DNA of 43,514 nucleotides from Hydrurus foetidus (taxonomy: Eukaryota). Position numbers and translations under genes: made by a program. Shown here one piece after another: positions 3,891 through 43,194 of the stretch. The stretch is taken from positions 1-43,514 of the forward strand of contig UYFQ01000676.1 in NCBI GenBank assembly GCA_900617105.1, given 5' to 3'. Below the pieces are notes generated by a model that saw only the letters and a program-made list of their open reading frames with translations, was not told the DNA's origin and made no database searches. Position 1 is the first letter of the stretch; every line of letters starts with the position of its first letter.

Positions 3891-3955
3891 CTGTGAGAGG
3901 GGAGATACGAAGAAAGGAATAAGTTCTGGATCATCGGAAAGAATAGATGATGAAT

Positions 3956-5361
3956 TTAGGTTGCATAGTTGCTCACCTTTGTGTTTCTTCGCAGCGTTTG
4001 TCGAGTCTGCTGTTGAAGTAGCAGGTTTTGACGAAGAGGAAGAAGAAGAGAAGACGATGAAGAAGAGGTCGATGTCTTAGGTAAAGTTGGAATAAACTTA
4101 GCCTTTGAATCGACTTTCAACAACTGCTTATGACCCTCAGAGTTGATATAGGGTGCGTCTGTACTGTTATAGTACGGAGACGTAGTGTAGAAACACGTGG
4201 CGACGAAATGGCCGAGTCTCCCACAACCTGTGCACAGAGGTCTTTCGAATTTGTCAGACTTGTCTGATTGCACAGATTGTTCGCTCTCTCGTGGACGTTT
4301 TTGATTTTGTCCTGAGAGGAACGAGGAGGAGCTTTGATTTGGCGAGAGTGATCACCATACAAAGGAGAGACATCAATGAACCGTAAGGCATCAATTGATT
4401 CTCGTAGCTTAGCAAGCTGCGCAAGCCATACGAATCGAAAGTCTTCGATTGTAATGAGTCTTGGCGTTGTATTGTTAAGACTACGCTGTAACACTGCTCT
4501 CCAATTGATAGGTTCGACAGGCAACTTATCGATTAGAATTTTGGTTGCCTGAAGTTGGAGAGCGGGTGTTGCATCAGGGAATCCATCAACAATATCAGCT
4601 AAAAGCTGATCTGTCTTGTCTTCCACTGATTTATCCTTCAGGTCGAATTGAAGTGCGACCTGAGAGACAGTTTCAATGAAACTCAGCTTGTCAGTTCGAT
4701 TGACAGCTGATGTAGGAACTGTGAGATTGAGTTCTCTACAGAACAATTGATTCGACCAATGTTTCCAATTGTTACAGGAGTCGCGACGATCGGGATCAGT
4801 TGCAAACTTACGCTTGAGAAGCGTTGTAAACGATTGATGGTTGGAAACATGGATTACATCAACTGGTTTAAATGGAGTTCCATTTGAAAGGAGGACCTCC
4901 ATTACCCGTAGTACTTCCTGACGAGAGGGCACGGCGCTCAACTTAGGAGCTCTCTCACCCGTTTGCACATAGTGCTGAGGTGGTGCCATCGAACGAGGAA
5001 TCTCAGCCGAAGCTGGTGTCGCAGACGAATCTGGTGTCGCAGCCGAAGCTGGTATCTCAGCCGAAGCTGGTGTCGCAGTCGAAACTGGTGATAACGTTAG
5101 AGCGGATAAAGCAGATAAAACAGGAGCATCAATAACAGACGAGACCGCAGGCTCCGAATTCCGCTGAGGAATCGGTGCAGACAGGTCGCCGGCGGGGTCC
5201 TGAGCCGCAGGTGGCCCAGGAGACTCGATGCTATCTCCTCCACGATTGTGGTGCTCCTCGTAACGTTGTCGGAAGGCGACGGCGACAGCTCTAGGAGGCT
5301 GTCGTTGTCGGCGAAGGGAATTGATGGTGCTAATCCTCTTGTCCTGGCGTCGGAGAGCCAT
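3956..5361 (-). pseudogene. gag: gag of element A with CCHC knuckle (frameshifted)
   Basis: ORF 4117-5361 continues after a frameshift into ORF 3956-4273, which carries CTGCGRLGHFVATC (CX2CX4HX4C). Confidence 0.88.
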
Positions 5362-13775: not shown

Positions 13776-13842
13776 GGAATTGCGAGGCCCTCATTGACTT
13801 CCCTACAGTCAGAGGATCACCTCGCCCCTTCTTCCATAGTCT

Positions 13843-16800
13843 TTGATCCTGAAGCTATTCTCTCAAGCACTCCTCTCACAACTGGCTTCTAGTACGTCTG
13901 TACCCGCACAAGCTCTTTGTCAGCCTTTCATTCGCGCTGGTTCAGTGCAATCTAAGGACGGACTCAACCCATTCCATTTCGCTCGTGGTCTATTGGACAC
14001 TGGCGCACAAGGCAGTAACTTTGTTTCCGGTACACTAGTTCTCAGCCTACCTAAATCGCATACGCTTGCTACTCGACCAACGGATCGCATTGTCCGCCTT
14101 GGTGATGCACGTCACATTGCAGTTCAATCTGAAATCCAACTCCTGGTCTGTTTGACTGATTCCTCTGGCAACGATCACGCTCACATACTATGGTATAGTG
14201 TTCTTGAGGATCTCAGTCATGATCTTATCATTGGTCTCGTCGACCTTGTCGGACCTTTCTACGATGTATTCGCTGATGCGATAGCTTCTTCTCGAAAATC
14301 TGCAATCGGAGCTATAGGAACTAATCTTCACGCTTTAACCGCCACAATCCGTGAATCCCTACCTTGTGCTCATCTTGGCAACACAATTCGCACAGCGCAT
14401 AACCTTAGTTCCCACAGTCGATCGTACGATCTCCGAAAGCGTGCCATCTGTACTAGCTCCAATACTGATATCTACGCTGTTGCTCTGCATGACGGTTCCA
14501 GCACTGATGTCCTTTCACACCCGCGGCATGGACTAGTGTATGCTGACAACCGCGTCGAACTACAGCACAATGCACTCTCATCATTACTGACTCAACCGTC
14601 ATCAGGAGATATCCTACCACCTTGGTCGCAACCAATTGATCAAATTGCACTCGAAGAATCCGAGACGCCTGATCCAACAAGTTTCCCTGACGATATACTC
14701 ATGCTTCTCACTGTCTCAAAAGATGAGGCTCGTCATGAATACAATAAAGATTTAGAGACTCACGTCATGCCAGAAATGAGTGCCGCTCATCCCAACATCT
14801 ATCGCCTTCTCACGTCTGACCTGGCATATGATGTCTTTGTTCCTCAAACCTGGACAGGTATACATATGCCTCCATACCATCTGACCACAAAACCTGGTCT
14901 CCCTGAGTTCCTGAAAGCTCACACCCGCCCAATTCGCGATATGCTCTACCAACATGCCAAAGCAGAATTTGATCGGATGAAAACGTACTTCTACGTGAAA
15001 TCAAATTCACCAATCGCTTGCCCGTTAGTAGTTGCACCTAAAGCCACAGCACCATTCATCCGCTTGTGTGGTGACTACAGGCCTATCAACCCCTTCATAT
15101 CCATTCCACAGGAACCCATTCCACATGTACAGCAATCCTTAGCAAAAGCAGCCGGATGGAAAGTCTTTGTAGATCTTGACATGACAAACTCATTTCATCA
15201 AATCCCACTTGACGAAGCAAGTTCCAACCTTCTGTCTGTATCTACACCATGGGGTCTGTACCGTCCCCTCTTCCTTCCTGAAGGTGTAGGACCAGCATCA
15301 GGAATCCTCCAATCAATCGTCCGCCGAGTATTTATCGACTATGAAGACTGGATCATTGTCATCTTCGACAATTTTCTTATCCTCGCCTCTGACTACGCTG
15401 ATGCAGCCAAGAAACTTGACCTTGCTCTCCGACGTTGCCGCGAGCATGGACTAGTGCTCAAAATGAAGAAGTCTTGGATTGGTTCCACAAATGTAACATT
15501 TTTCGGCTATGACGTACATCCAGGAACCTGGAGCCTCTCTCAGTCTCGGAAAGATGCCATCAGTGCTCTTGTCTTTCCGACAACGCAAAAGCAAATGCAA
15601 AGCTTTCTAGGTGCTGCAAACTTTTTCCACACTCACATCCCCAACTATGCCTCATGGGCATCCGATTTATACGAGTGTACTGCCGTGTCTTTTGACTGGA
15701 AGTCTCTGACATGGCCAAAAGACTATCGCAACCTATTCGAAACATTCAAGACAGCAATCCAAGCTTCAGTCATACTACACTTCCCAGACTACAACCTTCC
15801 CTGGATCATCAGATCCGACTCCTCCGACAACGCTGTGGGTGCTGTCCTCTTTCAAGAATTCACTGATTCATCCGGTACCATCATCCATCAGCCGATCACA
15901 TTCGCATCTCATAAATATTCCGGCGCCGCAGTAAACTGGGATACCTACAAAAAAGAAGCATACGCAATTTACTATGCCGTGTGTCAATTCGGGTATTACT
16001 TAACCGGCAAAACCTTTGTTGTAGAAACTGACCATCGCAATTTAGTATGGATGGAGACAAGCCTTGTTCCTATCATCATACGCTGGCGTGTCCTCCTTCA
16101 AAGCTACAGCTTTCAGATCAAACATATCCCTGGTAAAGAAAATGGTGTTGCCGACTGGATATCCCGTATGCATCCTCAATCGACACCATCTTCAACCCTA
16201 TCGTCATCGGAGAATACACTCAGTATTCAAGAAATGTTCGCATCTGTTCACGGTCATCGATCACTCCATCACGGAGCCAAACGAACTTACCTGACTCTTT
16301 GTCAACGTTATCCTGGACATGGCATCGCACTCCGCACCATCCAAGACCTTGTAGCTGAGTGTCCGATTTGCCAAAAGGATCGAATCCCTTTTGCCACTGT
16401 ACCTTCTCCTTCACTTACTGAAACAATCCTTCACCACGTTCGCGCCGTCGGTATGGATCATGTTACAGTTACACCTCCTGACGAAGATGGTTATATCGGA
16501 TTGTTACTACTTGTAGAACATGACACAAAATTCCCCCGTGCTTATCCAGTACGCGACTACACTGCTCCTACTGTCGCAACTATTCTGTTCCAACATTACT
16601 GTACCTTCGGTGCTTATGATGCACTATACTCTGATCCTGGCAGTGCATTCACTGCAACAGTCGTCCAACAGCTCAACTCTTGGATTGGTATTCCCCATCG
16701 TATATCAGTTATTGGACGTCACGAATCTAACGGAACAGAACATGTAAATGGTATCTTCATGGGTCACTTACGCCGTCTAGTTCATGACGAACGACTCACT

Positions 16801-17568
16801 CATAAGTGGGCATCTGACACTATCTTACCTCTTATCAATCATGCACTAGCCACCACACCAAATTCCGAACTTGGCGGTCTCGCTCCAACAGAGCTGAAGT
16901 TCGGTACAATGGATCATGCCCGCTTTCAACTACCACCGCCGCTTCCACCAGGTCATTCCTACGGTGAATACGTTAATCAACTAGACATAAATTTGTCAAT
17001 AGTCCGTGCCATCACAACACAATATCAACACGAATTGCGACAAAAACGTCAAGCATCCACAACAAATCAAAACATATATCAAAAAGGCGATCTCATATTG
17101 TGGAATCCAAAAGAACATGACAAGGCGTTTCGGTCATCAAAACTTGCACCAAAACTATTAGGCCCATACACTGTAATCACACAAGACGGAAATAATATTA
17201 CCTGCCTGCACACTCAGCTCAATACAGAACACGTCTTCCACACCGACCGCATTTCCCCCTACATCGGCACAATGAGATCAGCACAAAAGATTGGACTACT
17301 TGATCGAGAAGAATACATCGTCAAATCAATTGTCGCTCATCGTGGAAAATGGACTCACCTGAAATCAATTGAGCTCCTCGTCCACTGGCACGGCTACACC
17401 TCCGATTCCGATTCCTGGGAGCCTTGGACTTCGCTCCGACTTGTCAAGGCCCTCCACGAGTACCTACAAAAGATAGGGCATACAAATAAAATCCCACTCC
17501 CCTACCGACACGATTACCTCCCTCAACAAGGTATCGATACTACTCCAAAAGCCCACAAGGGTGCTTGA
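13843..17568 (+). CDS. pol: pol of element B: PR-RT-RH-IN-chromodomain (1241 aa)
   Basis: LLDTGA; DLDMTNSFHQI; LPEG; IFDN; SDSSDNAVG; TDHRNL; HHCC; GMDH/SDPG/TEH; LLGPY; chromodomain EYIVKSIVAH..VHWHGY..SWEP. Confidence 0.96.
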   Translation: MILKLFSQALLSQLASSTSVPAQALCQPFIRAGSVQSKDGLNPFHFARGLLDTGAQGSNFVSGTLVLSLPKSHTLATRPTDRIVRLGDARHIAVQSEIQLLVCLTDSSGNDHAHILWYSVLEDLSHDLIIGLVDLVGPFYDVFADAIASSRKSAIGAIGTNLHALTATIRESLPCAHLGNTIRTAHNLSSHSRSYDLRKRAICTSSNTDIYAVALHDGSSTDVLSHPRHGLVYADNRVELQHNALSSLLTQPSSGDILPPWSQPIDQIALEESETPDPTSFPDDILMLLTVSKDEARHEYNKDLETHVMPEMSAAHPNIYRLLTSDLAYDVFVPQTWTGIHMPPYHLTTKPGLPEFLKAHTRPIRDMLYQHAKAEFDRMKTYFYVKSNSPIACPLVVAPKATAPFIRLCGDYRPINPFISIPQEPIPHVQQSLAKAAGWKVFVDLDMTNSFHQIPLDEASSNLLSVSTPWGLYRPLFLPEGVGPASGILQSIVRRVFIDYEDWIIVIFDNFLILASDYADAAKKLDLALRRCREHGLVLKMKKSWIGSTNVTFFGYDVHPGTWSLSQSRKDAISALVFPTTQKQMQSFLGAANFFHTHIPNYASWASDLYECTAVSFDWKSLTWPKDYRNLFETFKTAIQASVILHFPDYNLPWIIRSDSSDNAVGAVLFQEFTDSSGTIIHQPITFASHKYSGAAVNWDTYKKEAYAIYYAVCQFGYYLTGKTFVVETDHRNLVWMETSLVPIIIRWRVLLQSYSFQIKHIPGKENGVADWISRMHPQSTPSSTLSSSENTLSIQEMFASVHGHRSLHHGAKRTYLTLCQRYPGHGIALRTIQDLVAECPICQKDRIPFATVPSPSLTETILHHVRAVGMDHVTVTPPDEDGYIGLLLLVEHDTKFPRAYPVRDYTAPTVATILFQHYCTFGAYDALYSDPGSAFTATVVQQLNSWIGIPHRISVIGRHESNGTEHVNGIFMGHLRRLVHDERLTHKWASDTILPLINHALATTPNSELGGLAPTELKFGTMDHARFQLPPPLPPGHSYGEYVNQLDINLSIVRAITTQYQHELRQKRQASTTNQNIYQKGDLILWNPKEHDKAFRSSKLAPKLLGPYTVITQDGNNITCLHTQLNTEHVFHTDRISPYIGTMRSAQKIGLLDREEYIVKSIVAHRGKWTHLKSIELLVHWHGYTSDSDSWEPWTSLRLVKALHEYLQKIGHTNKIPLPYRHDYLPQQGIDTTPKAHKGA

Positions 17569-17622
17569 ATATGGAAAGCCCAACACCTGAGGCGAACCCC
17601 TAATAGTAAGTCCTTGTTAGTT

Positions 17623-18294
17623 TTACACAACAACATTCTCATCAATTAAATCAAACGCAAAGCAATGTGATATACAATAAAATCGCTGCGCTACATTCAA
17701 CACACTGAATAATTTAACGCCTCTGCAACCATTATCATACATATTGATCACACCATCACAAACAATTATACTCATAGCATGGTTTGGAAGTAGCATATTC
17801 TGCTTCTCCCATACCTTAGCCTTCAACGTGTCACCCTGTGCTCTCTTGATTTGCTTCAATTTACTCGTATGAGTAGGCCCTGTGCTCCTTGAAGCTCCAA
17901 AAATAATGTATCTTCCATTCACAGTCAATTTCTTCTTCAACTGCTTTGGTCCGAATCTATTATTGAATTTGATCTCACGAAACTTATATGTCCAGTTTTC
18001 ACCCCTAACACTTGCCACCTCGCAAACATGACGTAAGAAATCGCGAACTTCATCTCTACCACAACCATCTGGCAACACCGTAATGTTGTTGGCTGTCATG
18101 AATACATCCCTTGGATCCTTGGCTCCATTAACCTACACCATTTACATATTATACATATCAGCAAATAACTCAAAATTATTCAATTCAACGATTTTTCGAC
18201 TTACCGTCACCATCGCCTGCTGCTTCGCGTTCAGTGCTGACATGATCGCAAATAATACGCACATATTCTCGTCTAAACTCCACTTGAACTCCAT
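17623..18294 (-). pseudogene. Antisense cargo gene in element B, putative papain-fold cysteine peptidase-like (~223 aa, two in-frame stops)
   Basis: ORFs 18142-18570 and 17623-18099 share one frame, separated by TAA and TAG. Motifs ENMCVLFAIMSAL and NHAMSII..NMYDNG. Confidence 0.5.
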
Positions 18295-18585
18295 ATTGTA
18301 CACACTCCACCGCAAGAATACGAAATTCGCCAAAAATTGTACGTAGTATCCCCAATAAATACGAAATTTTTCAAAAATCGTACGCAGTATCCACACTGAA
18401 TACAAAAAATTTCTCCCGACACGTTTCACCGATCTTCTCACACGTTTCACCGATCGGCAATTATTGATTTTTTCTCCAAAACGGCAGAGACAAATAAAAA
18501 ATCGAAGTTCGAATAAATTGTGATTGATTACAGATTCTGAACCGCAATTAAAAACTACATCTGAATCCATCTCTCAAAACTCTCA

Positions 18586-18633
18586 CAACTTCAACTTCAA
18601 CTTCAACTTCAACTTCAACTTCAACTTCAACTT
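18586..18633 (+). repeat. (CAACTT)8 microsatellite
   Basis: Eight perfect copies. Confidence 0.95.
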
Positions 18634-18920
18634 GAAAACTAAAACATGATTCTAGGCAAATGAAGGTCCCCTGTTCATATTAAACTGGTTTCGGTGAAGC
18701 TATCGAATCTTAATTTCACACTTTGAAGGTCGTGAGTTCGATTCTCACATATAACTACTGCTAAAATGAAACCGCCAGTAATATTTTTCTTACCTCATAT
18801 CTAATTATGCTTCTACAGCGATACAACAATGTTTGCGAACTCACTGAGATGTAACAACATATTTTGTATTTATTCATTTTTTAACTCCCATAGTCTCACA
18901 TTTAACCGCGAAAGGGGTGG

Positions 18921-19322
18921 TGTTATAGCTTCCACTATTTCATAGTTTCCACTATATTGCATTCTCACACGTACGTTACATGTATGTACGTACATAGTAC
19001 ACATTGCTTGCAGCCACAGGTTTTTCGGTACCAGCTTTTCGGTACCAGTTTTTGGTTTCTCGAATACTTCAACTTGCAACTCTCGTAGTCAGCTTCTTCG
19101 ATACACCTCTCACATCTTTAAATCTTTAAACAAAACACCAAACCCAAACCGGCTTCTTTTAGCCAAACATCCTGTCCAGCGACTCTCTTGTTGCTGAACG
19201 ATCTGTGGCCGTTAGCCGCTCATCCTAGTTTGCAGTTCTCGCAAACTGATCAACAGCCCTTGCAGTTGATCCAAGAAACCCGTCCTCTCGTTTTAGCTTC
19301 TGTAAGCTACGTGGACAGCATA
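18921..19322 (+). repeat. 3' LTR of element B
   Basis: Identical to 11438-11839; preceded by the PPT. Confidence 0.95.
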
Positions 19323-20780
19323 TGTTGATCAGGATGGCAATTCAAAATACGTAATCCTGAAACTAGTGCAAAGAAGACGCTAGTGTGCAATTCACTACAG
19401 CAAGTTGTATACTCAATCAAGCATGTTCTAACACCAGAGATAGTGAAGACTGGTTACAAGCGCATTGGACAATACCCCTCATCCTTTCTTGCAACCATGG
19501 GACGCTGCACGAGACCAATCTCTGCTCGGGATATGGCCACCATGCAAGAGGCTATACCGGATATGGTCGCCATATTTAGAGCTACTGGGAATCTAACCGA
19601 GGAACAGATGGATGCAGCAGGGATTCTAAGCGTGAACGATGAAGCATCTAATGCAAGACCCAAAGACGACCGTCCATTGCATCAGCAAAGGTCAGTTATC
19701 ATAAATGCTGATGACTGCGTCGCCAAGTATAGATCCTATCAGAACTACAAAGCAGCAGAACCAGAACGAAGAGCTACCGCAATGCAGCAACGGCAAGCTG
19801 CAAAAGAGATTCGAGAGAAGAAAGCAGATGAAATTAAGGCTCGAAAGGACATCAAGGAGGTAGAAAAATTACGACGGTCCAACCTTACGCCAGAGAAGAG
19901 GAGAGCGGAGGATAAGATCAAGCGTGAAGCGAATAAGGAGGCCAAGCGAGTCGCCGCTGCTCTAAACGAAGTGCAGGAACTTCCTGAAAACAATCCTGAC
20001 GGAGTAATCGATAACGACGATGATGACAATTTATTTGACGAGCAAGAAATCGCTGAGATAAGTTCATTCTTGCATGTTGCAAATATTTGATGTTCTGCGC
20101 CAGATGATCAACCCGTGTTCTAAATTATCCCGCGAGAGCGGATTAGCTTAGCAAATTGCGTGGAGAGTTATGATGATTGTAGAGCAGTCCTCTGATTTCT
20201 TTGTCCATTTTGTTTTGTTCGTAGCCCTCATCCTCGCTCCATAATTGTCTGCTGAATTTTTGCTGTTGAGGACCGATCTGATCCTAATATATTAAACAAA
20301 ATAAATTCCAAATTCAGCTCGTTTCGTCCCGTAAATTTATCCGCAACTGAGGACGACGATGGCGAACTAGTTTGCCAAGGGGCGTCCCGATTGGTTCAGA
20401 ATCAGTTGTGTTATGGTAGTAATTGTAGCTGCCGTGGTGAGAGTTGGGCAGGTTGAAAATATGTGCGGTGGGTTCAGGATAACGGTTGGGTTCAAGATTC
20501 CGCCACCGCTGGAATCCCCCACTCAAAATAAAAAAAAGTCGAATCCGTCAAAATGTGAAATTCGACTTTTTTCATTCTGTGAAAATCACTGATCTCATTT
20601 TTATTTTCCCTGAGGGTTGAATTTTCCATTCGCAACCACTTCGGGAGGGCATTTGAAAAGTTGAATATTCAAAAAGTAAAAAAGTCAAATAAAGAAAATC
20701 GCAACCACTCTATTCTGCTGGCATATGCTTGGCATAATTTAGCCCTCCGGGGATTTTGGATTATGCTAGCATTATGCCTG

Positions 20781-22722
20781 CAAGGGGGTATAAAAGGAGA
20801 GGGGCACTTTGAGGCCTCTGGGTCCCATAAAATTTTCTCCGATGTCTCTCACTCAAAACATTTATACCCGAGATTCTTATATTGCATCTATTTCATTACG
20901 AACCACATGAAGCACATATACTCTCAACATAGAAGTCGACCTCCTGACTACAACGATTATTCTTCCCAAGCGTCACAGGCATCCCCGGATTCGCAATTCC
21001 TCGCAGCTGAAGCCAATGTAAGAAAATTTCCAAATCGATGTGCATTGAATAAGAGTTATGTCATGACTGTCGTCCATAATTTCGATGTGGCATCGCTAGA
21101 TGGACATGACGCTGTGAATCCAACGTGCACTAAGGACGTCTAATCGGTCTTAAATACCATAAAAATGCCTCCTGAGTGGTTTAGTGCATGGTGCTACTGG
21201 AATTATTACCTTTTTTCGAGTGAGTCACTAACAATCGTCTACTTCACTTTCTATCCAGAAAAATGTCTTCGGACACTGTCGATGGGGTTGAGCTGCTGAG
21301 CATATTCAAGGCTTTCCTAGACCTGAAATTTCATGATTCTGTCAGCGAATCACCCACCTCCATCAATCGGATTAACGAGTGTTTGCTCACAGAGATACTG
21401 CACTCAATGTTAGTAATGCTGTTCTTATCCCAGACGCACCAGATTTACTAAGCAGTACATTAGAAAGTCTAAGTTGATAAATGTCTTTAGAGTACACACG
21501 TAGAAAGCCTGTGATGAATTGAAATAAGAATGCAATAGGCGTTTTGTGTAATGCTAAGTCTAGACCGTCTGTGAAGCAATGCTGTCATGTAACACAAGAC
21601 TCTCTGAATGCATTTTGCACATTAGTTGAGTTCATTATGATTTGTTTGACTTAATTCACCGGTTCATCAGAATTAAACAAAATCAATACATCGGTGGTCA
21701 ATGATTGCATGTATATACTCTGAATAATTTTTATAAAAATGTAGTTTCCAACTCTAGGGAAATACAGACCCTCAGAGTGCTGTCGAAAAAGGAGGTAATG
21801 CGCAGGCATGTCGTCCGATAATGCAGAAGATCCTAAATCAGCGAGATTGGGTGTAGTATTCGTGAAATACGTCTCGGAAATCGTTGCACAACCGATTATA
21901 CTTTAATACGTTGAATATTCTGTGACCGCAAAGATAGCCTTTTATATCATAGATCTTCTCTTTCATTGCTTCTGAGTACTCATCTGTTGTATCGTTTTCT
22001 CTCTCTTTTATGAAATTAGACCAGTGCTGCTTCTTCTCTGTCATAACCCATTTCCAGAAATTTTCTGATAAATAAAGCTCCAATGATCCATACAAAATGT
22101 TGCTTTCTTCAGAAGTGCTGTCGCTCTCATAATCGACAGCCATGTCGAAAGTATCTTTGATACAGGCCAGACAGCTGAACTTCTTCCTTGACTCGTCCCG
22201 TAGTTGAATTCTTTCAGATTCGAACGCTTGAATCATCACTTTGCCAGCTCGCTGACGTTTCTCAATTGAGCCACTCGTGCCGCCAATCGCAACTTTTTGG
22301 TATAGTTCAAAATAGGCAGCACAAAAGCCGTACAGCAAGACGATGATGTCATTACTCGACTCTGGGACACTCATGCAGCTTCTGAAAAATCCCCAAAAAA
22401 TGCTTCTTCGCTGCATGTTAAAAGGGATGCATTCGAAGAGGTTTTGAACGGTACTCCTAAAGATACCATCTTCCTCTGTGAAAACCTCCATGGTCAACTT
22501 CCTCATGATGAAAAGCTGTCGATAGTCTACAACTGAGGCAAGGCTTTGACTGAAGTTTGGTTGCAAGGAAATTTCTCAGGCGGGAGGGAAATGAAGAGAA
22601 TCTTTCAAATAATTAGATGCAGTATAAGAATCTCGGGTATTAATTTTGAGTGAGAGACATCGGAGAAAATTTTATGGGACCCAGAGGCCTCAAAGTGCCC
22701 CCTCTCCTTTTATACCCCCTTG
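20781..22722 (-). mobile_element. P-element-like non-autonomous transposon with ~110-bp TIRs
   Basis: TIR CAAGGGGGTATAAAAGG.. at 20781-20890 and about 22614-22722; 7-bp TSD ATGCCTG at 20774-20780 and 22723-22729. Confidence 0.85.
21651..22566 (-). pseudogene. ORF in the P-like element resembling the C-terminal region of P transposases
   Basis: 242-aa ORF with YDIKGYLCG; continues after a frameshift as YLLFRQHSEGLYFPRVGNYIF (compare YIAGY...GGLxxPS). No catalytic core seen. Confidence 0.5.
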
Positions 22723-26077: not shown

Positions 26078-27155
26078 ATGGCCACATTCCCAGTAACTCT
26101 GTTGGACAATCCTCGGCAACAATTCAGATTGTTTTATCGTGCTGCACTTGCCGCATATGGCGCGGCATGCACCACAATATATCAGCACGGCCTGCTCGGC
26201 TACATCGTCACCGACAACCAATGGGAACTTTTGCCCGGTAACAGCGCCCCCAATGCGGATCCTGTTCTCCCCAACGATATCCTTCCTCGCCCCACAATCA
26301 CGATTCCTCCCGCTCCCACTGCAACGGCAAGTGCCCTGACAATTAAAATTTGGGAGCGTAAGCTGGCAGATAATGTGCTGGTCACCGATAGCCTACGAAC
26401 GCTCAAGGCAAACCTCAGCCAGTATTCAGCCGGCAGATTTAGTGACACTCCACGATCCCTTCTTTGGACTACTTAACGTCAGTGCCCTAACTATCATGAC
26501 GCACATCACAGAATTACACGGTACCCTCAATCAGGCCGACTTCGCGCACCTCCGCAGTCAACTATCGCTCACCATGGGCCATAACGAGTCTATTCAAGAC
26601 TTCATCGGAACGCATCAACTTCTACATGATCAGTTTGCTGAGGCACAACAACCTCTCTCGGAGCTCGATAAGTGCCACCACTTCCGCGAAGCAGTTAAGC
26701 CCTTGACACACATCCATCACACCATCGATTCCTACTTGGTTACACATCCCCTAGACGGACAGCAACTATATCGCGAACTGACGACCCATGTTTTTCAACA
26801 AGCGCCTAACTTCACTCCCACGGCAGCGTCAATGGGATATGTGGCCACAGCATCTGCGCCAACAAACGCTCAAACGGAGCCATCATCCGTCGCCACACTC
26901 CTTCAATCTTGAGCATTTGCCGCCCTCCTCACCGCCGCTATCAAACAGGCCGCTCCCGACCGTAGAAACGGACGAAATCGATCCGCCGCAAAAAAGATCC
27001 CTGCCTCCGACAATCGGCCGTACTGCTTCCATCATGGGTACGACAGCCACCATGGTGTCGACTGCAGATACATGTCGGCCAATGCCTTCTCCTCCGATGA
27101 ACGAGCCGCTACCACGCACGGCACACTCACAGGCGCTTCCAGTAACCGTCTCTGA
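26078..27155 (+). pseudogene. gag: copia gag (one frameshift, one internal stop)
   Basis: ORFs 26078-26476 and 26373-26912, then in frame YCFHHGYDSHHGVDC knuckle, ending TGA at 27153-27155. Confidence 0.8.
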
Positions 27156-28495
27156 CCTGCAGGAACGGCTGGAATGCTTCCATGTTCGCTTCACGCACAG
27201 TGTAACTTAACAAGTACAGCATCTCTATCCGTTCCATCTTCTTTTTGCACCGACACGGGATCCACGAATACGTTGATTCGCGAATCAGATGCCAACCACA
27301 TTCATTTCGACGAGCCAACTCTCTACGTGCTGTTTCCCAATGGCAACACAATCGCCTCCATCGGCTCGTGCCTTATTCACATTCCTAACCTCCCTCACTC
27401 ACTGCTCACTCATGTATTCCGTGACGATGTGCTAAACACGTCACTTCTCTCCATCACCCAACTTTGTCAACTTGGTTGTGTCGCCAACTTCAGTGCCACC
27501 ACCGTCACAGTTACCCACAACACTCACACTGTGTTCCAGGGTACCAAGTCATCGGTAACCAACCTTTGGACAGTTCCCATTCCACACCTAGTCGCCACGT
27601 CAATAGCTCATGCTGCTACTGCACTCACTTCCGACGCTAACTTCGTTCGATTTGTGCATGCGGCACTCGGAAGCCCGTCGCATTCCACGTTTCTCAAAGC
27701 CGTTCGACGCGGATACTTGCACTTGTACCCGCGGCTCACATTCGCTCTCGTATCTGCTCATCCTCCACTTGCTATCGCCACGGCTCAAGGACATCTGGAC
27801 CAACATCGACAAAGCCAGACATCCACTGGAGTCCACGTCAATCTCTTCGATATTGACGACGATGATGATAGCGAGGCTAACCAAGCAAAAAAATCTACCT
27901 CGCCAACAGCGCACCAATCATTAGCATACACTCAAGTCGTACTCATGTCAGACACACTACACTCTGACCTAACTGGCCGTTTCTCCGTTACTGCACATAC
28001 CGGCGCTCAGTACCTATTTGTGTCATACCTAGATGGCTACATACACGTGGAGTCCATGAAGACGCGGCATCACATAGATTATATAACAGCATACAAAAAA
28101 ACGCTCAATTATTTCTCTAAACTTGGTCGCCATCCCGCTTTCCAGCGACTCGACAATGAGACATCTGGTTCGTTAGAGGCGTTTGCTCTTGCAAGCAACA
28201 TCTCCATACAGTACTGCCCCCCTCACACTCATCGATCCCTAAAGGCCGAGCGCGCAATTCGAACTTTCAAGAACCATTTTATTGCAACACTCTGCACAGC
28301 ACCTCCTGATTTCCCACTCCTGCTCTGGAATGAGCTACTGCCGCAAGTTGAGCTCTGTTTCAACCATCTCATTCCCTACAGTCCCAACATATCTGTTTCT
28401 GCATATGCGGGCCTCCACGGCGGAGCTTCAACTTCACAAAGCATCCAATTGCTCCTGCCGGAACGCGCATTCTGATACACGATAAGCCTGCTGTC
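27156..28495 (+). pseudogene. pol: copia pol fragment (protease, GAG-pre-integrase, integrase core)
   Basis: DTGST; FVHAALGSP; HSDLTGRF; RLDNE; KAERAIRTFKNHFIA. Confidence 0.9.
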
Positions 28496-31400
28496 TGCGT
28501 CACGCATACCCAGCCATATGTTATTTGTTTTCTTTAAATTTCGCAGTGTGCGTTGTACACCACCATGTCCGACTATCGTGTTATGGCACGTTGCAATTAG
28601 GTTATATTGCTCGGTCGTCATTGGCTTGTGTGTCAGAATAGCTGCTATTACTCCTGTTTTAGGTAGCATTCTGTTTTTACATAGGCGAGACATTGCGTCA
28701 GCAATTTCATTTTGTTTCCCTGGGATATACCCTATCGTATATTCTAGTTCCTGCAGGGCCATACGCCATCTGCCGACCATCTCGTTTTTATCCTTTTCTA
28801 GGAACGTAAGATTTTTGTGGTCTGTTAGGATTGTGAATTTACGATCTCGCAGCAGTGCGTCGAGATAAGTACAGCAATAATATAGCGCGAAGGCTTCTTT
28901 TTGTATTACTGACCATTTCAGTTGAGTCTTGGTAAGAGACTTGCTGACAAGAGCGACGAGTTGTTTTTCTCCGTCGACTTCTTGATACAAATAGCCGCCG
29001 ATACCGTAATCCGACGCATCGGTCATAAGGGTTATGGGCGCTGTATCGTGTATAAAATATAATAAAGGACTCCTTGCAATTAGATCTTTTATCTTTTGAA
29101 AAGAATTTGCGGCGTCATCTGTCCAGATTAGCATTGATTGCTTTTTCGCGGCGTGATCTATCATTTTATGCAGTGGTGCCACCACGTTGGAGTGATTTGG
29201 TACATGATCCCGAAAATAATTGGTGAGTCCGAGAAACGATCTTAGTTCGGTCGTCTTTCTTGGCATAGGAAAGTCGGTCACACCTCTTATCTTTTTGGAA
29301 CTCATAGTTATACCTTCTTTAGATATTTGCTTACCAACATATTCAACTATTTGCACATTTAGCTTAAGCTTTGCGGCTTTTAGTGAAATGTTCTTTTCTT
29401 CGAGACGTTGAAATACAATTTCTAATCGTTCGCAGAATTGTTCAAATCCATTACCATAAACGATGATGTCGTCGAGGTATACTTCACAGATTTGGTATAT
29501 TAGTCCTAAAAGGACTATTGAGGCCATCATTTCTTGGAAATATGAGGGGGCCCTCTTTGGTCCGAAAGGTAGTCGGGTGAAGTGGTAGATGCCCATAAAT
29601 GTTATGAAAGCGGTATACACACGTGTGCTTAGCGTTAACGGTGCCTGGTGATATCCTGCAGTGAGGTCTATTACACCGAATGTGTCAGCTTTTTGTGAAC
29701 CTAATCTTGCTAACATTTGTTTAATATTAGGGATTGGCCAGCTTGCTGATTCCGTTGCGTCGTTGAGGTGACGATAGTCAATACAGAATCGGTATAAACC
29801 GTCGGGCTTTGCCGCAAGTGTTACTTGCGAGTAGTATGATGCCTCTGATTTGACTATTATACCCTGTTCGAGCATAGTGTCAACTTGTTTTCGGATTTCG
29901 ACCTGTTTTCGTGTAGACGTTGGTCTGGGTGCCACGCGGTTTTTGAAAACTTTCCACTCTGGATCCCGTACGGGTAGCCCAAAGGGAGGAATTCGCGCGG
30001 GCTCTGGTCCGAGTTTGTTGTTGAATAGCTTTATGTGTTTGACACAAATTGCTCTAATTTTTGCTTGTTGTTCAGGGGTACCATCGATCTGTATGAGATC
30101 GATGAGGTACATTTTGTCCTCTGTTGGATTGTCTTGGAAAGGAGCGAAGGTATCTTTCGACTTGTAGTCAATCTCTTCGGGTCCGAAGGGTTGAACCTCT
30201 GGGAGTTCTTCACGCTCCCGGAGTAGAGCAGCAACTAAACCAAGTGTTTGGGCTGGTGCCTTGGATGAGGGAGTAGGAGTAGCTAATTCCGGACTCCTGT
30301 CGGCTGTTACACCTAAATCATTTCGTCGGGGAGGTGACAACAAAACTGCTGCCTCGACCGTAGGGTGCAAAATGAACTCATCGGGATCTAGCCTAGCCGC
30401 TGCCGCAGCTAAGCTAGCGGGACACCCACATGAAAGAGTGCATGTCTTGCTTGTACAAGCACCTCGAGCCACCAGGTCGTCTTGCCATCGACTGTCTGCG
30501 TCTGAGGGTTTTGTCCCCTCCAGGCTAGTTATAACCGGAGGTATGGTTGGATCTGTAATGCTCGTGACTGTGTCCGACTCTGCTTCTAGCAGGAGTGGAA
30601 CGTCCACTTGGTTTATTACCATGTGTGTGGACTGGTCGAGTCTTTGCATTTTTGACATGTGTGTCATTGTCTTGTCTGTTACTATATTTTCCGGATTTTT
30701 GAAGAATTCCGGAATGATTTTAACCAAATTTAATTTTTTAATAGTCTGTAATCCTAAGATAAAGTCGACTTTTGAATCTTCTGCAATTCGCACCGGAAGA
30801 GAAAAAGTGTGTTGAAAAGAGTTCTTTTTAAATGATACAATAATATCAAGCACACGTGTTGATTCAATACATTGGTTGTTTAAACCCGAGCACATCCATA
30901 AGGGAGTGTCTGTTGGGCGCAGGTGGGGTTCGCCTCGTAGGTCCCGGAGGACTCTACGGTTGATTACGTCCCCGACCTGGCATCCGGTGTCGATTTGGGC
31001 GAGCGCGTCGATTCCCTCACTTTGGAGCGTACTTTGAGGACGACGAGGATGAGGAGGAGCTGGCATTGGAGTCTCGGTCGCGGTTGGAGAAATCTCTGTC
31101 GCGGTTGGAGACGTCTTTCTCTTTTTCCGTGTTGCGCGAGTCGTCTTTGCGGCTGGAGTCGCGGTCGCGACTGTCGGAGTGACTGTCGTTGCGATGGTTG
31201 GGCCGGAAGTTTGCGATCGGGTCTGTGGAAGAGATATGTGTACTTGTAAGTAATCCTCTATATTTTCAGGCAGTACTGCGGAAAGTAACATTTGCATGGT
31301 GGGTGTGCTGCGACTTTCGTCGAGGTTTTTTACATGCGTAGCGGTAAGGTGTAACTTACTTTTGCCTTTGTAGTTTGAGCTTGCGTGGGAACCACTTGGC

Positions 31401-31747
31401 TTGTTGCCACGCTCGCTGTTGCGATCGTCTGACTGACGATCGTTGTTGCGGTTGTTGGACTTATTGTTGTTGTTCTTGTTATTGTTGTTGTTTGGGCGGC
31501 GTGGGTCTTGGGTCTTAGGTGGTCCCATGTCCATCTCAACATCGTCGACTGGGTAGACGTACGTCGACGCACCTGGGTAGTTGGTGAGGTGGGTTTTCTC
31601 GTTGTTGACGTAGATGTCGGGTTTAAAGTGGGAATGCCCGATGCGTTTGAAATCCTGCCCAATGGAAGAAGCGTTCCATGTGGCGTGGGAGTTGTTGCAG
31701 TGCGGGTTCATAAAGAGCGGACAATTGTACCGATTATGAGTTGTCAT
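28495..31747 (-). CDS. pol: Gag C-terminus plus pol of element C in one open frame (3'-truncated)
   Basis: ORF 28376-31747: QIDTG, IDLTAGYHQ, LPFG, YLDD, TDASDYG, HNTIVGHGG. The last ~40 codons are copia antisense sequence. Confidence 0.92.
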
Positions 31748-33383
31748 TCCGCACGTGTGACATACGTCTGTTGTTCGGCTAATGCCTTCGTTGTCGGGAC
31801 GACGTTTGGGAATGGTCTTGTATGATGCGGATGGGCCAGTGGACGCGGATGTGGACAGTTGGGTGTCGGGATCTTCTTCAGGGGTAAGCTTGGTGGTGAA
31901 GGTATAGCTTAGTCCCCCATCTTGTCAGCGTCCGTAACTGTCTCGCGTGACGCTTGGAGACAGATGACAAGACGGGCGAGCATTTCCCTGATGTTGTCCT
32001 TTTTCCTTTCTTTGGCTGCCACTTTGGTCAAGTCCATGAAATTTTCAGTGAACTTGTTGCCTGGTGGGAGCTTTTTGTAGAATATCTTGCAGATATCGTC
32101 CTGGCGATCACTATCGATGTTGTCATACTTGTTGTAGAACCCCAGGATAATGTCGCGGAACGCGGCGATGGAAGTGTGTTCCAGTGCACCGTTCAGCCAA
32201 CTGAATTTGAACTGAAATCTCCTCAGTTTGAGGTCGAAGTCGTATGTGGATTGCGTACGTCTGTTAATGAAGTAGATTGTTTTAAGATCTTCTGCCATTT
32301 CTTTCAGAGTGAGCTCACCATCCGGTAATTCCGGCCACGCCATACATTGCGCGGGGGTGTACCCGACGAGCTTCGTGTTTTGCAAGAGTCCATCACGAAT
32401 GGTGTCGAGTGCCTCATCCTCTATCAGCGACTGCCAACCCGCGCTGAAACCAGGTCGGTGTGCCTGTTGGTAGAACAGGCGGGCGGACCCGTCCATGTCC
32501 TTCAACAGTACGTCCCTACCCATGTAGAACGCCTCCTTCATGTTAAAAAGGGAGGTCGTCATGTTTTGGTGACGTGGGATTTGGTTGCGTTGGGGTTGTT
32601 CGATGCCCGCATCTTCTGTTTTGCGTTTGCGTATAGGGTTCTCCACGGCCTTCGGTTTCGAAGCCGGGACCTTTTTCGCTGGTGCTTTAGCAGTGCGTTT
32701 GGCAGGTTTGGCTGTGCTGTTTGAGGGTGGTTGCTCTGGTGTGGGTTTGACTACTCGGGGGAGCGTCTTTTGGCAGGTGGTTTGGCCTCTGCGGGCTTGT
32801 TGGTGTCGAGTTTGGCTGTGAACGGATCTTCGGAGTCGGACGGGACTTGACTACCTTCATCCGATGAGAGTTCGATGTAGTTTTCATCGTCCTCGTCCTC
32901 GTCTTCCTCACCGGTTTCATCCTCCCCGTCCTCCTTGTCTGATTCAGGGTGGGAGTCCGATGTCACTTTGCCGTCGGCTGTTTGATCGTCCTTATTGCCG
33001 TCTCCCTCCTCGTCATTCTGTTGGGTCGGATTGCCACCTTGGTTTTCCTCCTTGTCGATGTTGTCGAGGTTGTCCGGTGATAAGGTGGCGGGTTCACTAT
33101 GTGAAACGACCTCGCCCATGATCGACATGAATTCGGAAAGACTTTGATCATCGTCTGCTTTTTCCTTTTCTTCTGTCTCGCCCTCCAATATGGAGAGACG
33201 TTTGCGCTCTGCCATGCGCGTGTTATGCCTCTCGGCTTGTTTTGCCTTGTGGGCTTTTTGTTCGTCTTCGATGCGGCTTTCAGTGTCTGTAGCCTTGATG
33301 CTTTTTGACTGAGCGCCGCCGTCGAAGCGGCGATATTTGCCTCGCGCCGCTTGGCGACTTGTTTGAGACGTTCCTTTTCCCAT
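31748..33383 (-). pseudogene. gag: gag of element C (frameshifted)
   Basis: ORFs 32751-33383 and 31909-32646, then knuckle CHTCGMTTHNRYNC at about 31762-31721. Confidence 0.82.
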
Positions 33384-34019
33384 TTGAGGGTCAGGCGTTC
33401 ATCGTCTAGGAGCGAAGAGCTGAAGATGATTGGGTTAGAGCTCTGTCTCTTGTCTTTTTGGCTCTTTGTCATCGTGAATTTTGGTCGGGACTTATTTGGA
33501 TGGAACTGAGCGTCTTCGACAGCGACGGAACTCGGACGCGGTGATGTAGGGAAATGAGGAGTAGGTTCGTCGAGGATGGAGACTGGTAGGTTAAGAGTGT
33601 GGCAGTAGAAGTCAGGGGGATTGGGTTACTTTCGTGCGATTTCGGGAGGAAATCGCGTCGAAAGTTGGGGGCGTTGGACGGCTTCGTGGGCAACGAAGTT
33701 GGGCGTGCGCGTTGGAGCTTTCGTTTTAGAAACGATTTGTTTGGTTTCACTTGCTTGCAAGTTACTCTCTTTTGTCGGCCTTCGTTTTCTGAAGAGCTCG
33801 AGGAGATGTCGTTAAAAGTCGTCGGAACGAACTTCTAAACGAGGGCGTTCTGGAGGCTGTCGATTTAACAGAGCCTTTGTAGTGTCGTTAGACGTTGTTT
33901 TCACTTAAAAAAGTTACTCGCTTTTGTTTGGCACGACTGTTTGACGGTCGCGGCAAGATTTTTCTGTTGATTTTGGAAACTGGTCTCTGAAGGAGATCCT
34001 AGTTGGTTCCAAATACCGG

Positions 34020-34239
34020 TATTGTGGCCTTGCTAGGTCTCAGGGCAACGGGAGCGGAGGTCTGAGGGCGCGTGGACAAAGGGAAGATGCTGTGGGGCTA
34101 AAGCTATGATAGCAATGTGGTTAGCTTACAGGTAAACACAGCAGATATCATGGCAATGAATCGTGTGGATCGGATCGTCCTCGATCCGAACCGGACGTAC
34201 GCCTGTACCCTTACAGCCCGTACGGGTGTTCGGGGCACA
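34020..34239 (-). repeat. Inferred 5' LTR of element C (TG...TA)
   Basis: Starts TGTGCCCC exactly where the integrase of D breaks (LQHF|). Its end CCACAATA parallels the element A LTR end CCACAACA. No partner LTR in the window. Confidence 0.7.
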
Positions 34240-40126: not shown

Positions 40127-43006
40127 TCAGTACCTCGTCAGTGAGTTTGTTTCACGACGGGGTATCTGGATTTTGAAGCGGTCCAGACCAGGGATGCGGT
40201 CGTGGAGAGGATAGGTCGCATGACCGTATTGTACCCACGTGCGACCCATGTTGGAGTGGTCCCACGGAACATTGTGGTTGGTGTTTGAATCCACCATCCA
40301 CATGTATGGGCAGTTTTTCAGCAGATGGTCGCTGTGTCCACACGAGTTACACTGTCGGAGTGGTGTTGTTGGCAGTGCCAGCGGTGGTAATGCTGGGAGT
40401 GCCGCACCAACCAACAGGGTTTTGGGGTTAGTCGTGAGAGATAACCCATACGGATTTTGTCTCGCGGGGTGACAGTAAATGTCGTTGGGGTCCCCGAAAG
40501 CCGCTACGTGTAGCTGGAGCTGTCGTACCGCATTGACTTGGGAGAAGAAGCGACGCATCGCAAATTCCCAATCGTCCACGTCATGCGGGTTGACGCGCTT
40601 ATGCTCTTTGTATTTGGCGGTGATGGCACCGTTAAGAGGCATCTTTTTCTCTAAAATGAGAGTGAGTGCAGCATGGTCGGAGGTGCTGAGTGGGCCATGT
40701 ACTTGTACATGATTCTCAACCACCTCACGAAACTGCGTCATGCAGCGCATCTCAATCTCACTTTTGTTGTAACAAAAGGCGAGATGTACTTCGGAGAAAT
40801 GCTCCGCCAGTGACTGCCCGAGTTGCGTGTCCGCGCGAAAGTAGCGCAGGACTAAGTGCGCAACTTGAGGAACCGTCAAAGTTTGGAGCCACACTTTACG
40901 TGTCTCCTCGGAGTATGGATAATCTTGATCCGTATGGATCTGATCATCAATGCATCTGACTGCTTTAGTCGAGATGACTTGACCAACATCGTAGTTGTTG
41001 GTCCAGCGCTGGGAGTGCTCATAAAACTCCCGCGCTGCATCCTGTCCAATAATGCCGGACGCATTCACGTTGAGAACGTAAAGTACCGTTTGCAGTGCAA
41101 TAGCGGATATAGGTCGGGAACCATCATCCACCGCACGTCCACCCACTACAAGCGCTGTAGGGATCGCACTGGGTGTGGCAACCTGTACCGCGGATACGTT
41201 GATCGGTGACGTATGATCATGTATATACCGTGGTATCGGCGGTCGTACTGGGTGCGCTGCATTGGGGTCGAGACCGCCCCCTGCAGCTCGGAACGCTGCC
41301 GTTTGCAGCTCGTAATCGATGATGCGATCCGTTGCGGGTAGCACCACGATGTCTGGAGGATCCAGGGGAAGTGGGGTAGGAACCCGAATTTCCCGTGGGA
41401 TTTTCTGGATGACTCGTTGGGGTTGGGGGTTATAATCGGAGTCACCAGTAAACGTACGTACGTACGTAGGACATTCGGGTGGCCCTGGTGGGGAGGCTTG
41501 TCGCTTGCGTGACGTTGGACCCTCTTGAGGGGGTAACGCGCGTTTGCGAGGAGCATCCGCTGTGCGGGTTACTGTCCCCACATCTTCGGGGATGCGCGTA
41601 TCGCGACTCTCGAGCAATCTAGAGTTGTCGGTCACGCGTATGGACGCACGTGGAGTCGTACGACTCTCAGTCGCACGTTCGTCCTCATATTGGTTTTCGT
41701 TGTACTGACGACTGTCAGTATTACGATTGCCCCTGTTCGAGGTATCATGTTGGCGACGATCGTCCCCTTGATGATTTTCCCTGGGGGGACTGTCGTCGTA
41801 ACCCTGTGGGGGTTCTCTACGACTTCTCCTGTTGGAGTTGTTATCTCCCTGACGGAAGTTGTCATTGTTGTCGTCGCGAAAATTCTCGAAATTGCGAGTA
41901 TTCGTAGAATAATTCCCCCTATTGGGGTTGTCATTACGACGAGAATCCTCGTAATTACGATTATCCCTTTGGGGGTTATCGTTGGGACGTTGGAAGGTGT
42001 CTCGGCGATTATCCCTGTTAGGGTTGTCGTCTTGTTGACGATTATCGCTATCGCGACGCCCGTCATTCTGAAGTGGGTTGTCGTCGTTGCGACGATTGTC
42101 GCTGTTGCGTCGATCGTCATATTGACGTCTGTTATCGTCATTGAATTGGGTGTTGTACCCGCGACGTCCCTCGTTGTCGTAATCATGACTGTCGTCATTC
42201 TGACGGTAATTGTCGTTATAACGACGATTATCGCTTAGACGATGATTGTCGTTGCGGCGATCATCGTTATATTGACGTCCATCGTTATCGTGACGATTGT
42301 CGTTACGGTGCTCCGTACCGTATGAAGGGCCCGTATTACGGTTGTCCCTGGGAGGGTTGGAGTCATCGTAGTTACGACGATTGTCGTTGTGACCTTGATT
42401 GTCATCATTAAAACGCCGATAATCGTTGTTGTTTCGATTATCGTCATTGTATTGACGCTGGTTAGAATCGTTGCGTTGACGGTTATCGTAACGATTAACG
42501 TCACCACCGTCTTCGCTACCACTCTGTTGATTCGGAGTAGGCGGATAGTCGCCCGTTGCATCTCCGTCGAAGGGGTTATTTCGACGAGTTGAGTTGTCAT
42601 AACTGTCGAGGCCCTGACGACGGAGATATCGTTGCGGGGGTGAATCCATACGGCGGCGAGGGTTTGTATCGCCGTCGTCATCATCCCGGTCAGGGTCGCT
42701 GTTGTGGCGTGTCTGTTGACGGTTTGCGTCTGACGAACGCAACGTGACATTGTCTTGTTGTCGCGTTGTGTGAACGTCGTCGTCGTCGTCGTTATGACGA
42801 TTAGGCGGCGCCTGATTGGAACTGTTGGTAGGTCCCAGCATTGTTACTGGGAATACCGGTCGATCAGTTCCATCAGACGCAGCTACTGCTGTCGGCGCTG
42901 TTGGTGTCGACTGAGTTTTTGAAACTGTCGTCGCTGCCGGAACTACTTGAGTAGTTAATTCGGCGAGCGACGGCGAGATCTCCGAAGAGTCATCGGATAA
43001 CGGCAT
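40127..43006 (-). CDS. gag: gag of element E (959 aa) with a long N/D/R low-complexity N-terminus
   Basis: Long ORF, CCHC knuckle, capsid-region similarity to gag of D. Confidence 0.88.
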   Translation of the reverse strand: MPLSDDSSEISPSLAELTTQVVPAATTVSKTQSTPTAPTAVAASDGTDRPVFPVTMLGPTNSSNQAPPNRHNDDDDDVHTTRQQDNVTLRSSDANRQQTRHNSDPDRDDDDGDTNPRRRMDSPPQRYLRRQGLDSYDNSTRRNNPFDGDATGDYPPTPNQQSGSEDGGDVNRYDNRQRNDSNQRQYNDDNRNNNDYRRFNDDNQGHNDNRRNYDDSNPPRDNRNTGPSYGTEHRNDNRHDNDGRQYNDDRRNDNHRLSDNRRYNDNYRQNDDSHDYDNEGRRGYNTQFNDDNRRQYDDRRNSDNRRNDDNPLQNDGRRDSDNRQQDDNPNRDNRRDTFQRPNDNPQRDNRNYEDSRRNDNPNRGNYSTNTRNFENFRDDNNDNFRQGDNNSNRRSRREPPQGYDDSPPRENHQGDDRRQHDTSNRGNRNTDSRQYNENQYEDERATESRTTPRASIRVTDNSRLLESRDTRIPEDVGTVTRTADAPRKRALPPQEGPTSRKRQASPPGPPECPTYVRTFTGDSDYNPQPQRVIQKIPREIRVPTPLPLDPPDIVVLPATDRIIDYELQTAAFRAAGGGLDPNAAHPVRPPIPRYIHDHTSPINVSAVQVATPSAIPTALVVGGRAVDDGSRPISAIALQTVLYVLNVNASGIIGQDAAREFYEHSQRWTNNYDVGQVISTKAVRCIDDQIHTDQDYPYSEETRKVWLQTLTVPQVAHLVLRYFRADTQLGQSLAEHFSEVHLAFCYNKSEIEMRCMTQFREVVENHVQVHGPLSTSDHAALTLILEKKMPLNGAITAKYKEHKRVNPHDVDDWEFAMRRFFSQVNAVRQLQLHVAAFGDPNDIYCHPARQNPYGLSLTTNPKTLLVGAALPALPPLALPTTPLRQCNSCGHSDHLLKNCPYMWMVDSNTNHNVPWDHSNMGRTWVQYGHATYPLHDRIPGLDRFKIQIPRRETNSLTRY

Positions 43007-43194
43007 CGTTAAATGACTTATGTCTTGACAATTTTAAGTAGCGAGAGTCGCCAAAAAATTGCAAGGGCTTCGCCTCGTGCCGTTTGGATGAAAATCAAAC
43101 AGACGATTAGGCGAAGCAAAATAAGTCAAGTAAGTTCTGGGCGGATGAATGAATCAATCCGCACAAAATGAGCCGGGATTGGGAGACTTGCTCG

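Follow-up and report, generated by a model that had tools for sequence, protein, structure and literature searches.

In a clade of chromodomain-bearing Ty3/gypsy retrotransposons with a single open reading frame (ORF), the choice between Gag and Gag-Pol is in all likelihood made by host splicing of a short segment at the start of the protease, the length of which is 3n+2 nucleotides, to judge from the way in which the layout is conserved at the sequence level. One member of this clade, element C, lies in the window, that is the stretch of 43,514 nucleotides of Hydrurus foetidus contig UYFQ01000676.1 that was analysed, almost all of which is transposon. How would such a switch operate? In a share of the transcripts the intron would be taken out by host spliceosomes. 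Where it is retained, a single frame, as read from the sequence, would lead from Gag through the protease, reverse transcriptase (RT), RNase H and integrase. Where it is removed, translation would continue in the -1 frame for 5-68 codons, mostly specifying Gly, Arg, Lys, Asn and Ser, and would stop just before the catalytic Asp of the protease. By analogy with BARE1 the spliced RNA would be the abundant Gag mRNA, giving Gag with an added tail, and the unspliced RNA would be both the minor source of Gag-Pol and the packaged genome. More speculatively, the loop may be tolerated in Pol as a disordered surface of the protease, and this would have left room for the overprinting of a Gag tail.

Element C extends over the minus strand between about 33.5 and 28.5 kb. 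Coordinates 31924-28376 of that strand make up a long ORF (1182 aa), which is open when the intron is retained and holds in order, according to its translation and to Pfam, the zinc knuckle, the protease, RT, RNase H and the first part of the integrase. The features of the element are the following.

31909..33472, minus strand: upstream gag, in three frames, with an ATG near 33472
31721..31762, minus strand: CCHC zinc knuckle, C-X2-C-X4-H-X4-C, from the translation
31354..31362, minus strand: predicted splice donor AAA/GTAAGT, phase 1, with its GT at 31359-31358
31223..31359, minus strand: predicted alternative intron of 137 nt (3n+2), adding 45 residues to Gag-Pol if retained, the first protease strand among them
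31246..31250, minus strand: branch-point-like CTTAC, a candidate only
31223..31236, minus strand: pyrimidine tract and CAG acceptor, the latter closing a Gln codon of the Pol frame
31017..31222, minus strand: predicted dual-coding exon, read as a 68-aa tail and TGA (-1 frame) or as a protease loop (Pol frame)
31017..31019, minus strand: TGA at which the spliced Gag frame ends, 28 nt short of the codon for the catalytic Asp
30695..31270, minus strand: retropepsin-fold protease including the loop insertion, from structural alignment of a model
28748..29809, minus strand: RT and RNase H (Pfam RVT_1, E 2e-18; RT_RNaseH, E 7e-26)
28500..28612, minus strand: integrase start (H2C2), a weak match to Pfam Integrase_H2C2 (E 0.028) under the cut-off

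The copy of element C in the window is dead. Its gag lies in three frames, with breaks near 33.3, 32.75 and 31.91 kb and pieces corresponding to the ORFs 32963-33625, 32751-33398 and 31909-32850, and its pol is cut near 28.5 kb by copia-like sequence on the opposite strand. The element is truncated at its 3' end and the LTR pair is absent. The gag gives no match in Pfam, including to the Pfam capsid families, and was recognised by eye from its homology to the N-termini of the relatives P0001 and P0025. Intact relatives are represented by P0004, P0025, P0029 and P0036, which are single ORFs of about 2020-2090 aa with a chromodomain at the end. Near-identical pieces of element C are present in one glacier and two freshwater libraries, which suggests a microbial eukaryote of fresh water as the host. 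In one run, X4, summing the contig depth gives some 450,000 for pol, 15,000 for gag and 480 for the flanks (28300-31100 versus 31400-33200), which denotes a very large family with a conserved pol and a fast-diverging gag, depth not being the same as copy number.

The sequence-only reading from which this analysis started had described a donor AAAA/GTAAGT at 31359 and an acceptor at 31223 on the minus strand, and both are present, the acceptor side reading TCTCTTCCACAG up to 31223 and the two sites bounding a segment of 137 nt. Its account of the two frames was equally accurate. Unspliced, the frame runs on into Pol and is open from 31924 to 28376; spliced, it becomes KGK followed by NPIANFRP...SSKYAPK, a tail of 68 aa that ends at the TGA ahead of the DTG of the protease (30991-30983, with the Asp codon at 30991). 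The tail is rich in N/R/D/S, as are the Gag residues upstream of the donor, and the Pol frame of the same stretch, which had been called Thr-rich, is T/A/P/R-rich. The location assigned to the segment, between the knuckle and the protease, holds in part: it does lie downstream of the knuckle, but its last 15 or so codons, representing the 3' third of the intron, already encode the first protease strand or strands in the structural model.

This model, made with AlphaFold2, begins at the donor codon and places one strand at residues 37-43 and the DTG strand at 117-123, with a loop of low confidence between them that spans residues 46 to 116 or so (pLDDT 45-60 over residues ~46-110). Residues 31-224 superimpose on residues 6-124 of the RSV protease (Z 11.3, rmsd 2.8, 115 aligned) and residues 31-222 on residues 4-99 of the HIV protease (Z 9.3, rmsd 2.7, 95 aligned), and a relative with a short loop gives a retropepsin match too. 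These alignments put the beginning of the protease in the 3' third of the intron and make the dual-coding exon an internal loop. In the model, then, the dual-coding exon is a disordered loop within the protease, and the removal of the intron deletes the first strand of the enzyme.

The layout extends well beyond element C. A scan based on RT gave 79 loci, and the junction is readable in 43 entries, element C included. Loci were scored if they had a DTG motif with at least 70 open codons upstream (at least 90 in the GTRAGT test), and L069 was left out because its DTG is not protease-like. Clustering of the junction peptides at 50% identity produced 27 families, 17 of which fall in the clade. 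The clade was delimited by a quick RT tree, built without reference chromovirus sequences, in which element C groups with 26 loci and with elements A and D of the window (SH-aLRT 99); L022, the RT of which is cut short, is outside the tree and was placed in the clade on the basis of 66% RT identity. As the families are related by descent, the p-values given below are overstated. The sequence-only reading had proposed that conservation be sought among family copies, and the splice signals, the 3n+2 length and both reading frames are indeed conserved across the clade. On this comparison of sequences the intron layout is real and clade-wide.

At the donor, the motif GTRAGT has a density of 1.21/kb in the junction zone versus 0.21 in gag and 0.31 in pol, lies in phase 1 in 10 of 10 cases and occurs in 10 of 27 families, where synonymous shuffles give 3.6 +/- 1.7 and 0 of 1000 shuffles reach 10. 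The plain GTRAG motif is not enriched over the shuffles (13 of 27 families versus 10.1, p 0.15), and several family donors are weak (GTAATA, GTACTG, GTGATG). A position-blind search for donor-acceptor pairs returned a 3n+2 spacing in 17 of 26 families versus 88 of 318 control windows; the scorer mis-picked L015, L030 and L033 and missed L017, mainly because AAG acceptors had been barred. An acceptor rule anchored on the protease strand, with ad hoc donor and acceptor scores, was adopted after this result. With it 16 of 17 families of the clade have their best donor in phase 1 versus 133 of 284 control anchors (47%; p 5e-5), and the introns predicted in 16 of the 17 families measure 86-161 nt and are all 3n+2. 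In L017, the sole exception in phase, a frame break interrupts the intron and Gag-Pol is lost, and splicing would still join its Gag to an RGG tail. Since the anchored rule was set after the data had been seen, the held-out test matters: five previously unused loci, three of them from another collection, all have a phase-1 donor, a 3n+2 length, CAG and a stop 13-37 nt before the Asp.

The acceptor side is marked in a similar way. Fifteen families have a Gln within six codons of the strand, and the first such Gln is encoded by CAG in 14 of the 15 (hand count) versus 36% in pol (p 7e-6). The dinucleotide AG is nearly absent between 25 and 4 nt upstream of the acceptor (2 in 374 nt versus 0.064), a test that is partly built into the acceptor rule. 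Pyrimidines make up 0.74 of the positions ahead of the acceptor versus 0.49, and the T content is 0.35 within the intron versus 0.19 and 0.12 in its flanks.

Beyond the acceptor it is the -1 frame that carries the signal. Stops in this frame account for 20 of 572 codons between the acceptor and the Asp (0.035) versus 933 of 8470 in pol (0.110; p 2e-10), and inside the intron itself they account for 72 of 610 (0.118). The Fisher-combined probability of the open frame is p 3e-4, the per-family sum being biased by the stopping rule. Across the clade the first -1 stop lies 13-73 nt before the catalytic Asp codon and is TAA in 14 families, TGA in two and TAG in one. The tails so delimited range from 5 aa (L025 and L030) to 68 aa, are 51% G+R+K and 3% hydrophobic, and, with RGG boxes in several of them, contain 14 RGG/RGRG motifs in 403 residues versus eight in the 7553 residues that pol gives when read in -1. 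In the Pol frame the DNA of the tails encodes Glu-, Ala-, Thr- or K-rich sequence that is unconserved; the C/C/H/C residues of the knuckle are nearly invariant across the 17 families. Tails with RGG motifs bind RNA, and the composition of the Gag tail suggests that it probably does so.

The nearest relatives of element C were compared at the protein level. Among nine representatives, all eight that reach the donor have K-S-K or K-S-E there, and K-S-[KE] fits A/GTAAG or A/GTGAG. Gln-Ile/Thr follows the protease strand in nine of nine, and in nine of nine [SNI]-[EDR]-G precedes ALxQI/ALI-DTG (G-x-x-ALxxIDTG); acidic and basic residues alternate at this site, and either kind is compatible with a -1-frame stop of the form T-GA or T-AG. 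Four loose-end variants in DNA (runs X3 and X5), read by hand, are informative about this stop, which is TAG, TAA and TAG in three and missing in one. Contigs that match the intron to 31222 and diverge exactly past the acceptor number four in X4, four in X5 and one in X7.

What evidence is there that the intron is actually removed? For element C itself the sequence-only reading had looked to reads that join 31359 to 31223; in eight runs no contig skips 31223-31359 (X1-X4 over 26500-34200, X5-X8 over 30960-31620). The runs were examined as contigs, which lose rare variants, so that a skip not seen does not equate to absence. Of these runs, X1-X3 are RNA but barely cover the intron and leave the junction unbridged, and X4-X8, which lack a library record, resemble DNA. 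A single RNA contig reaches the site (X3 record 22, 31298-31528), and it reads across the donor without splicing. The claim that splicing gives Gag and retention Gag-Pol is well supported at the level of the clade, where the conservation of the layout and the junction in P0247, described next, speak for it. Wider scans added nothing to this: relatives were confirmed among 0 of 275 pattern matches in a junction-based scan of metagenome contigs, and among viral contigs for 0 of 95 junction-scan matches and 0 of 30 RT-query matches. An intron-less DNA copy was not found among the 43 + 10 loci with a readable junction, as would be expected if spliced RNA is rarely copied.

The protein P0247 bears more directly on removal. 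A profile search with the Gag region upstream of the donors retrieved seven short proteins, two of which read through the intron, four of which stop before the junction and one of which, P0247, crosses into the tail. It passes from Gag straight into the tail in the manner that had been predicted beforehand for family L033. When compared with L033 by tblastn it falls into two pieces, with the donor at 433, the acceptor at 542 and the change of frame at the predicted junction. Over its last 54 residues, 38 of them identical, it aligns with the predicted L033 tail without a gap and finishes where the stop had been predicted, and residues encoded by the intron are missing from it. For three proteins from the same sources, P0092, P0157 and P0159, the gene call carries on across the intron, and this speaks against an intron-aware caller as the origin of P0247. 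This sister-family protein may be the product of a spliced RNA, a retrocopy or a gene-caller artefact. On a separate point, the acceptor is AAG in three families, and these form a subclade with Pro/Arg-Lys instead of Gln (L015:2088-2195, L017 and L033:433-542), for which P0247 supports the use of AAG.

Could splicing be real and yet serve some other end? Its main role might be to make a tailed Gag isoform, or to bring about RNA decay or silencing, with the Gag excess arising elsewhere, for instance from degradation of Pol as in Ty5. The tail is certainly longer and more selected than control of a ratio needs, BARE1 adding three residues, and the multi-kb 3' UTR of the spliced RNA invites nonsense-mediated decay, as has been argued for Copia (PMC5580714, in the text available). 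Yet elements with a single ORF, 14 of 17 of which have no slippery site, need some route to an excess of Gag; decay alone would not select an open and compositionally biased -1 frame; and the tails of 5 aa in L025 and L030 mean that the stop is more constant than the tail. Such a role is on balance unlikely to be the main one. The same stop also bears on the view that the whole pattern is a coincidence, in which the motifs stem from protein constraints and from a purine-rich loop free of -1 stops, and P0247 is the product of a gene caller or of a one-off deletion at AAG/G microhomology. A protease strand does produce a pyrimidine-rich stretch, so that the strand upstream of the acceptor is structural; K-S-K gives GTAAG, and GTRAG alone is explained by the amino acids; and no junction was seen in the contigs of eight runs. 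But the synonymous choices (CAG over CAA, T at donor +6) match the splice consensus, the Pol-frame loop is unconserved where the -1 frame is always a G/R/K/N tail, the stop holds its position whether it is TAA, TGA or TAG, and P0247 fits a junction that was predicted beforehand. We regard coincidence as very improbable.

It is harder still to credit that there is no splicing and that ribosomes enter the tail through a programmed -1 frameshift near the acceptor, a reading to which we attach hardly any probability. Frameshifting of this kind is the usual Gag/Pol device (PMC3735527, introduction, in the part available), and three of 17 families contain a correctly phased X XXY YYZ heptamer, but the other 14, element C included, have none. 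Stops in the -1 frame are found 4-85 nt ahead of the acceptor. Most ribosomes would, moreover, have to shift, and the phase-1 donors, the CAG bias and the lack of intron-encoded residues in P0247 would be left unexplained. Splicing as the determinant of Gag versus Gag-Pol is the reading retained in what follows.

The logic of splice-made Gag is itself known. In BARE1, a Ty1/copia element of barley, the protease domain opens with a 104-nt GT-AG intron, the splicing of which produces a frameshifted Gag-only mRNA (PMC3735527, in excerpt), and in Arabidopsis Ty1/copia elements such as EVD, with its shGAG RNA, a splice-induced frameshift stop yields a Gag-only mRNA, Gag-Pol coming from retention (PMC5580714, in excerpt). 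The sequence-only reading had presented the strategy as new after comparison with Ty3, Drosophila copia and Ogre only, a claim that BARE1 and EVD do not support, since they already work in this way. BARE1 and the clade share a single gag-pol ORF, a short 3n+2 GT-AG intron at the protease start that is U-richer than its flanks, and a shift of frame that ends Gag. In BARE1 the unspliced RNA serves replication, the role that it would have in the clade, but its Gag stops three residues on, where the clade adds a tail of 5-68 aa overprinted on the protease loop, and its splicing was demonstrated by RT-PCR, where that of the clade is deduced (PMC3735527, in excerpt). In EVD the whole protease is lost with the intron, the splicing of which is tied to early polyadenylation (PMC5580714, in excerpt), whereas the clade intron is shorter and overlaps the start of the enzyme.

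Within Ty3/gypsy the comparison is different. The plant elements Ogre and CRR have partly spliced transcripts with other outcomes, whereas splicing in the clade would disable Pol (PMC3735527 and PMC6317226, in excerpt). Tf1/Tf2 and Ty5 resemble the clade in having one gag-pol ORF without a frameshift, but theirs is a single polyprotein that is processed, with the Gag excess of Ty5 arising through degradation of Pol, and the available portions of PMC7175516 and PMC5580714 mention no Gag-making intron. A genome-wide study of Arabidopsis found no such conserved splicing in Ty3/gypsy (PMC5580714, in the portion available), and a 2025 review names, in its available portion, only EVD and BARE1 for splice-made Gag (PMC12786077). 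A gypsy case with such an intron does not appear in the portions available of PMC12477816, PMC6875170, PMC7175516 and bioRxiv 10.1101/2024.04.02.587720, and PMC3059260 leaves splicing and introns unmentioned. In the open literature, with subscription papers and Repbase reports outside its scope, no description of a Ty3/gypsy element with this intron was found. What is new is therefore the occurrence in Ty3/gypsy and the overprinted tail in the protease loop, the splice logic being known.

The assignment to Ty3/gypsy follows from the order of the domains. In copia elements the integrase precedes RT, and the gypsy order differs. In element C the protease fold, RVT_1 and RNase H are followed by the weak Integrase_H2C2 match, so that the integrase comes after RNase H, contrary to Ty1/copia, and full relatives add rve and Chromo domains; the best PDB match is Ty3 Gag-Pol (E 4e-81). 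BARE1 is, by comparison, Ty1/copia, where the clade has the order RT-RNase H-integrase-chromodomain. Metaviridae are characterised by a pol with PR, RT, RH and INT, a gag with capsid and nucleocapsid, and LTRs, PBS and PPT (PMC7879559). Long direct repeats at element-length spacing are present in three of five relatives and may be LTRs or assembly overlap. The chromodomain (PF00385) is found in P0004, P0006 and P0009 and in most of the 120 Pol matches listed, and is absent from the truncated element C; chromodomain gypsies outside the chromoviruses are reported from Ectocarpus and oomycetes (PMC12477816, in excerpt). The clade shares two features with the BARE1/EVD type, namely a single gag-pol ORF and, at the gag/protease border, a predicted GT-AG intron that shifts the frame and makes a stop.

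A broader interpretation can be offered, to which we give an even chance. An undescribed gypsy clade would have independently evolved BARE1-like splicing together with an RNA-binding (RGG/basic) Gag tail, overprinted on a dispensable loop of the protease, with the result that the C-termini of Gag and Gag-Pol differ; sister lineages may use a 3n+1 intron and the other frame, making frame switching the conserved trait. The source of excess Gag in single-ORF LTR retrotransposons is an open question for most families, and a gypsy clade with splice-made Gag would, if true, represent convergence across superfamilies. The annotated single-ORF products of such elements would then miss what is likely to be the main protein. 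The dual-coding exon would be a small, naturally occurring example of overprinting within the fold of an enzyme, and the combination of a phase-1 donor, an AG-ending codon after the first protease strand and a -1 stop before DTG provides a signature that can be searched for without RNA.

The remaining elements of the window include two with the following positions.

3891..3976, minus strand: element A, AAG/GTGAGC ... TCTCCCCTCTCACAG, a predicted intron of 86 nt (3n+2) ahead of the protease DTG, in the same RT clade as element C
11985-17568, plus strand: element B

In the copy of element A, frame breaks nearby prevent a direct reading of the frames, and in elements D and E the junction is too broken to read. 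Element E (40127-43033, minus strand) has a Gag-like ORF of 968 aa in which a very long repetitive stretch, rich in N/D/R, precedes the capsid-like part. Two pairs of inverted repeats, one of 58 nt at 20801-22701 with 1.8 kb between its arms and one of 48 nt at 9967-20515 with 10.5 kb between them, the latter lying around element B, are likely to be the ends of DNA transposons.

Outside the clade, L050 has a 104-nt version of the intron, also 3n+2. Five distant loci that have no loop insertion (L055, L057, L058, L070 and L071) combine a phase-1 donor with a phase-2 acceptor (3n+1), and in the same five a +1-frame stop lies 5 nt before the Asp codon, a weaker pattern without a control of its own. 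Further relatives, L080-L096 from the genome contigs, are found within bacterial MAG records and GTDB bins, where they are probably contaminating eukaryote contigs.
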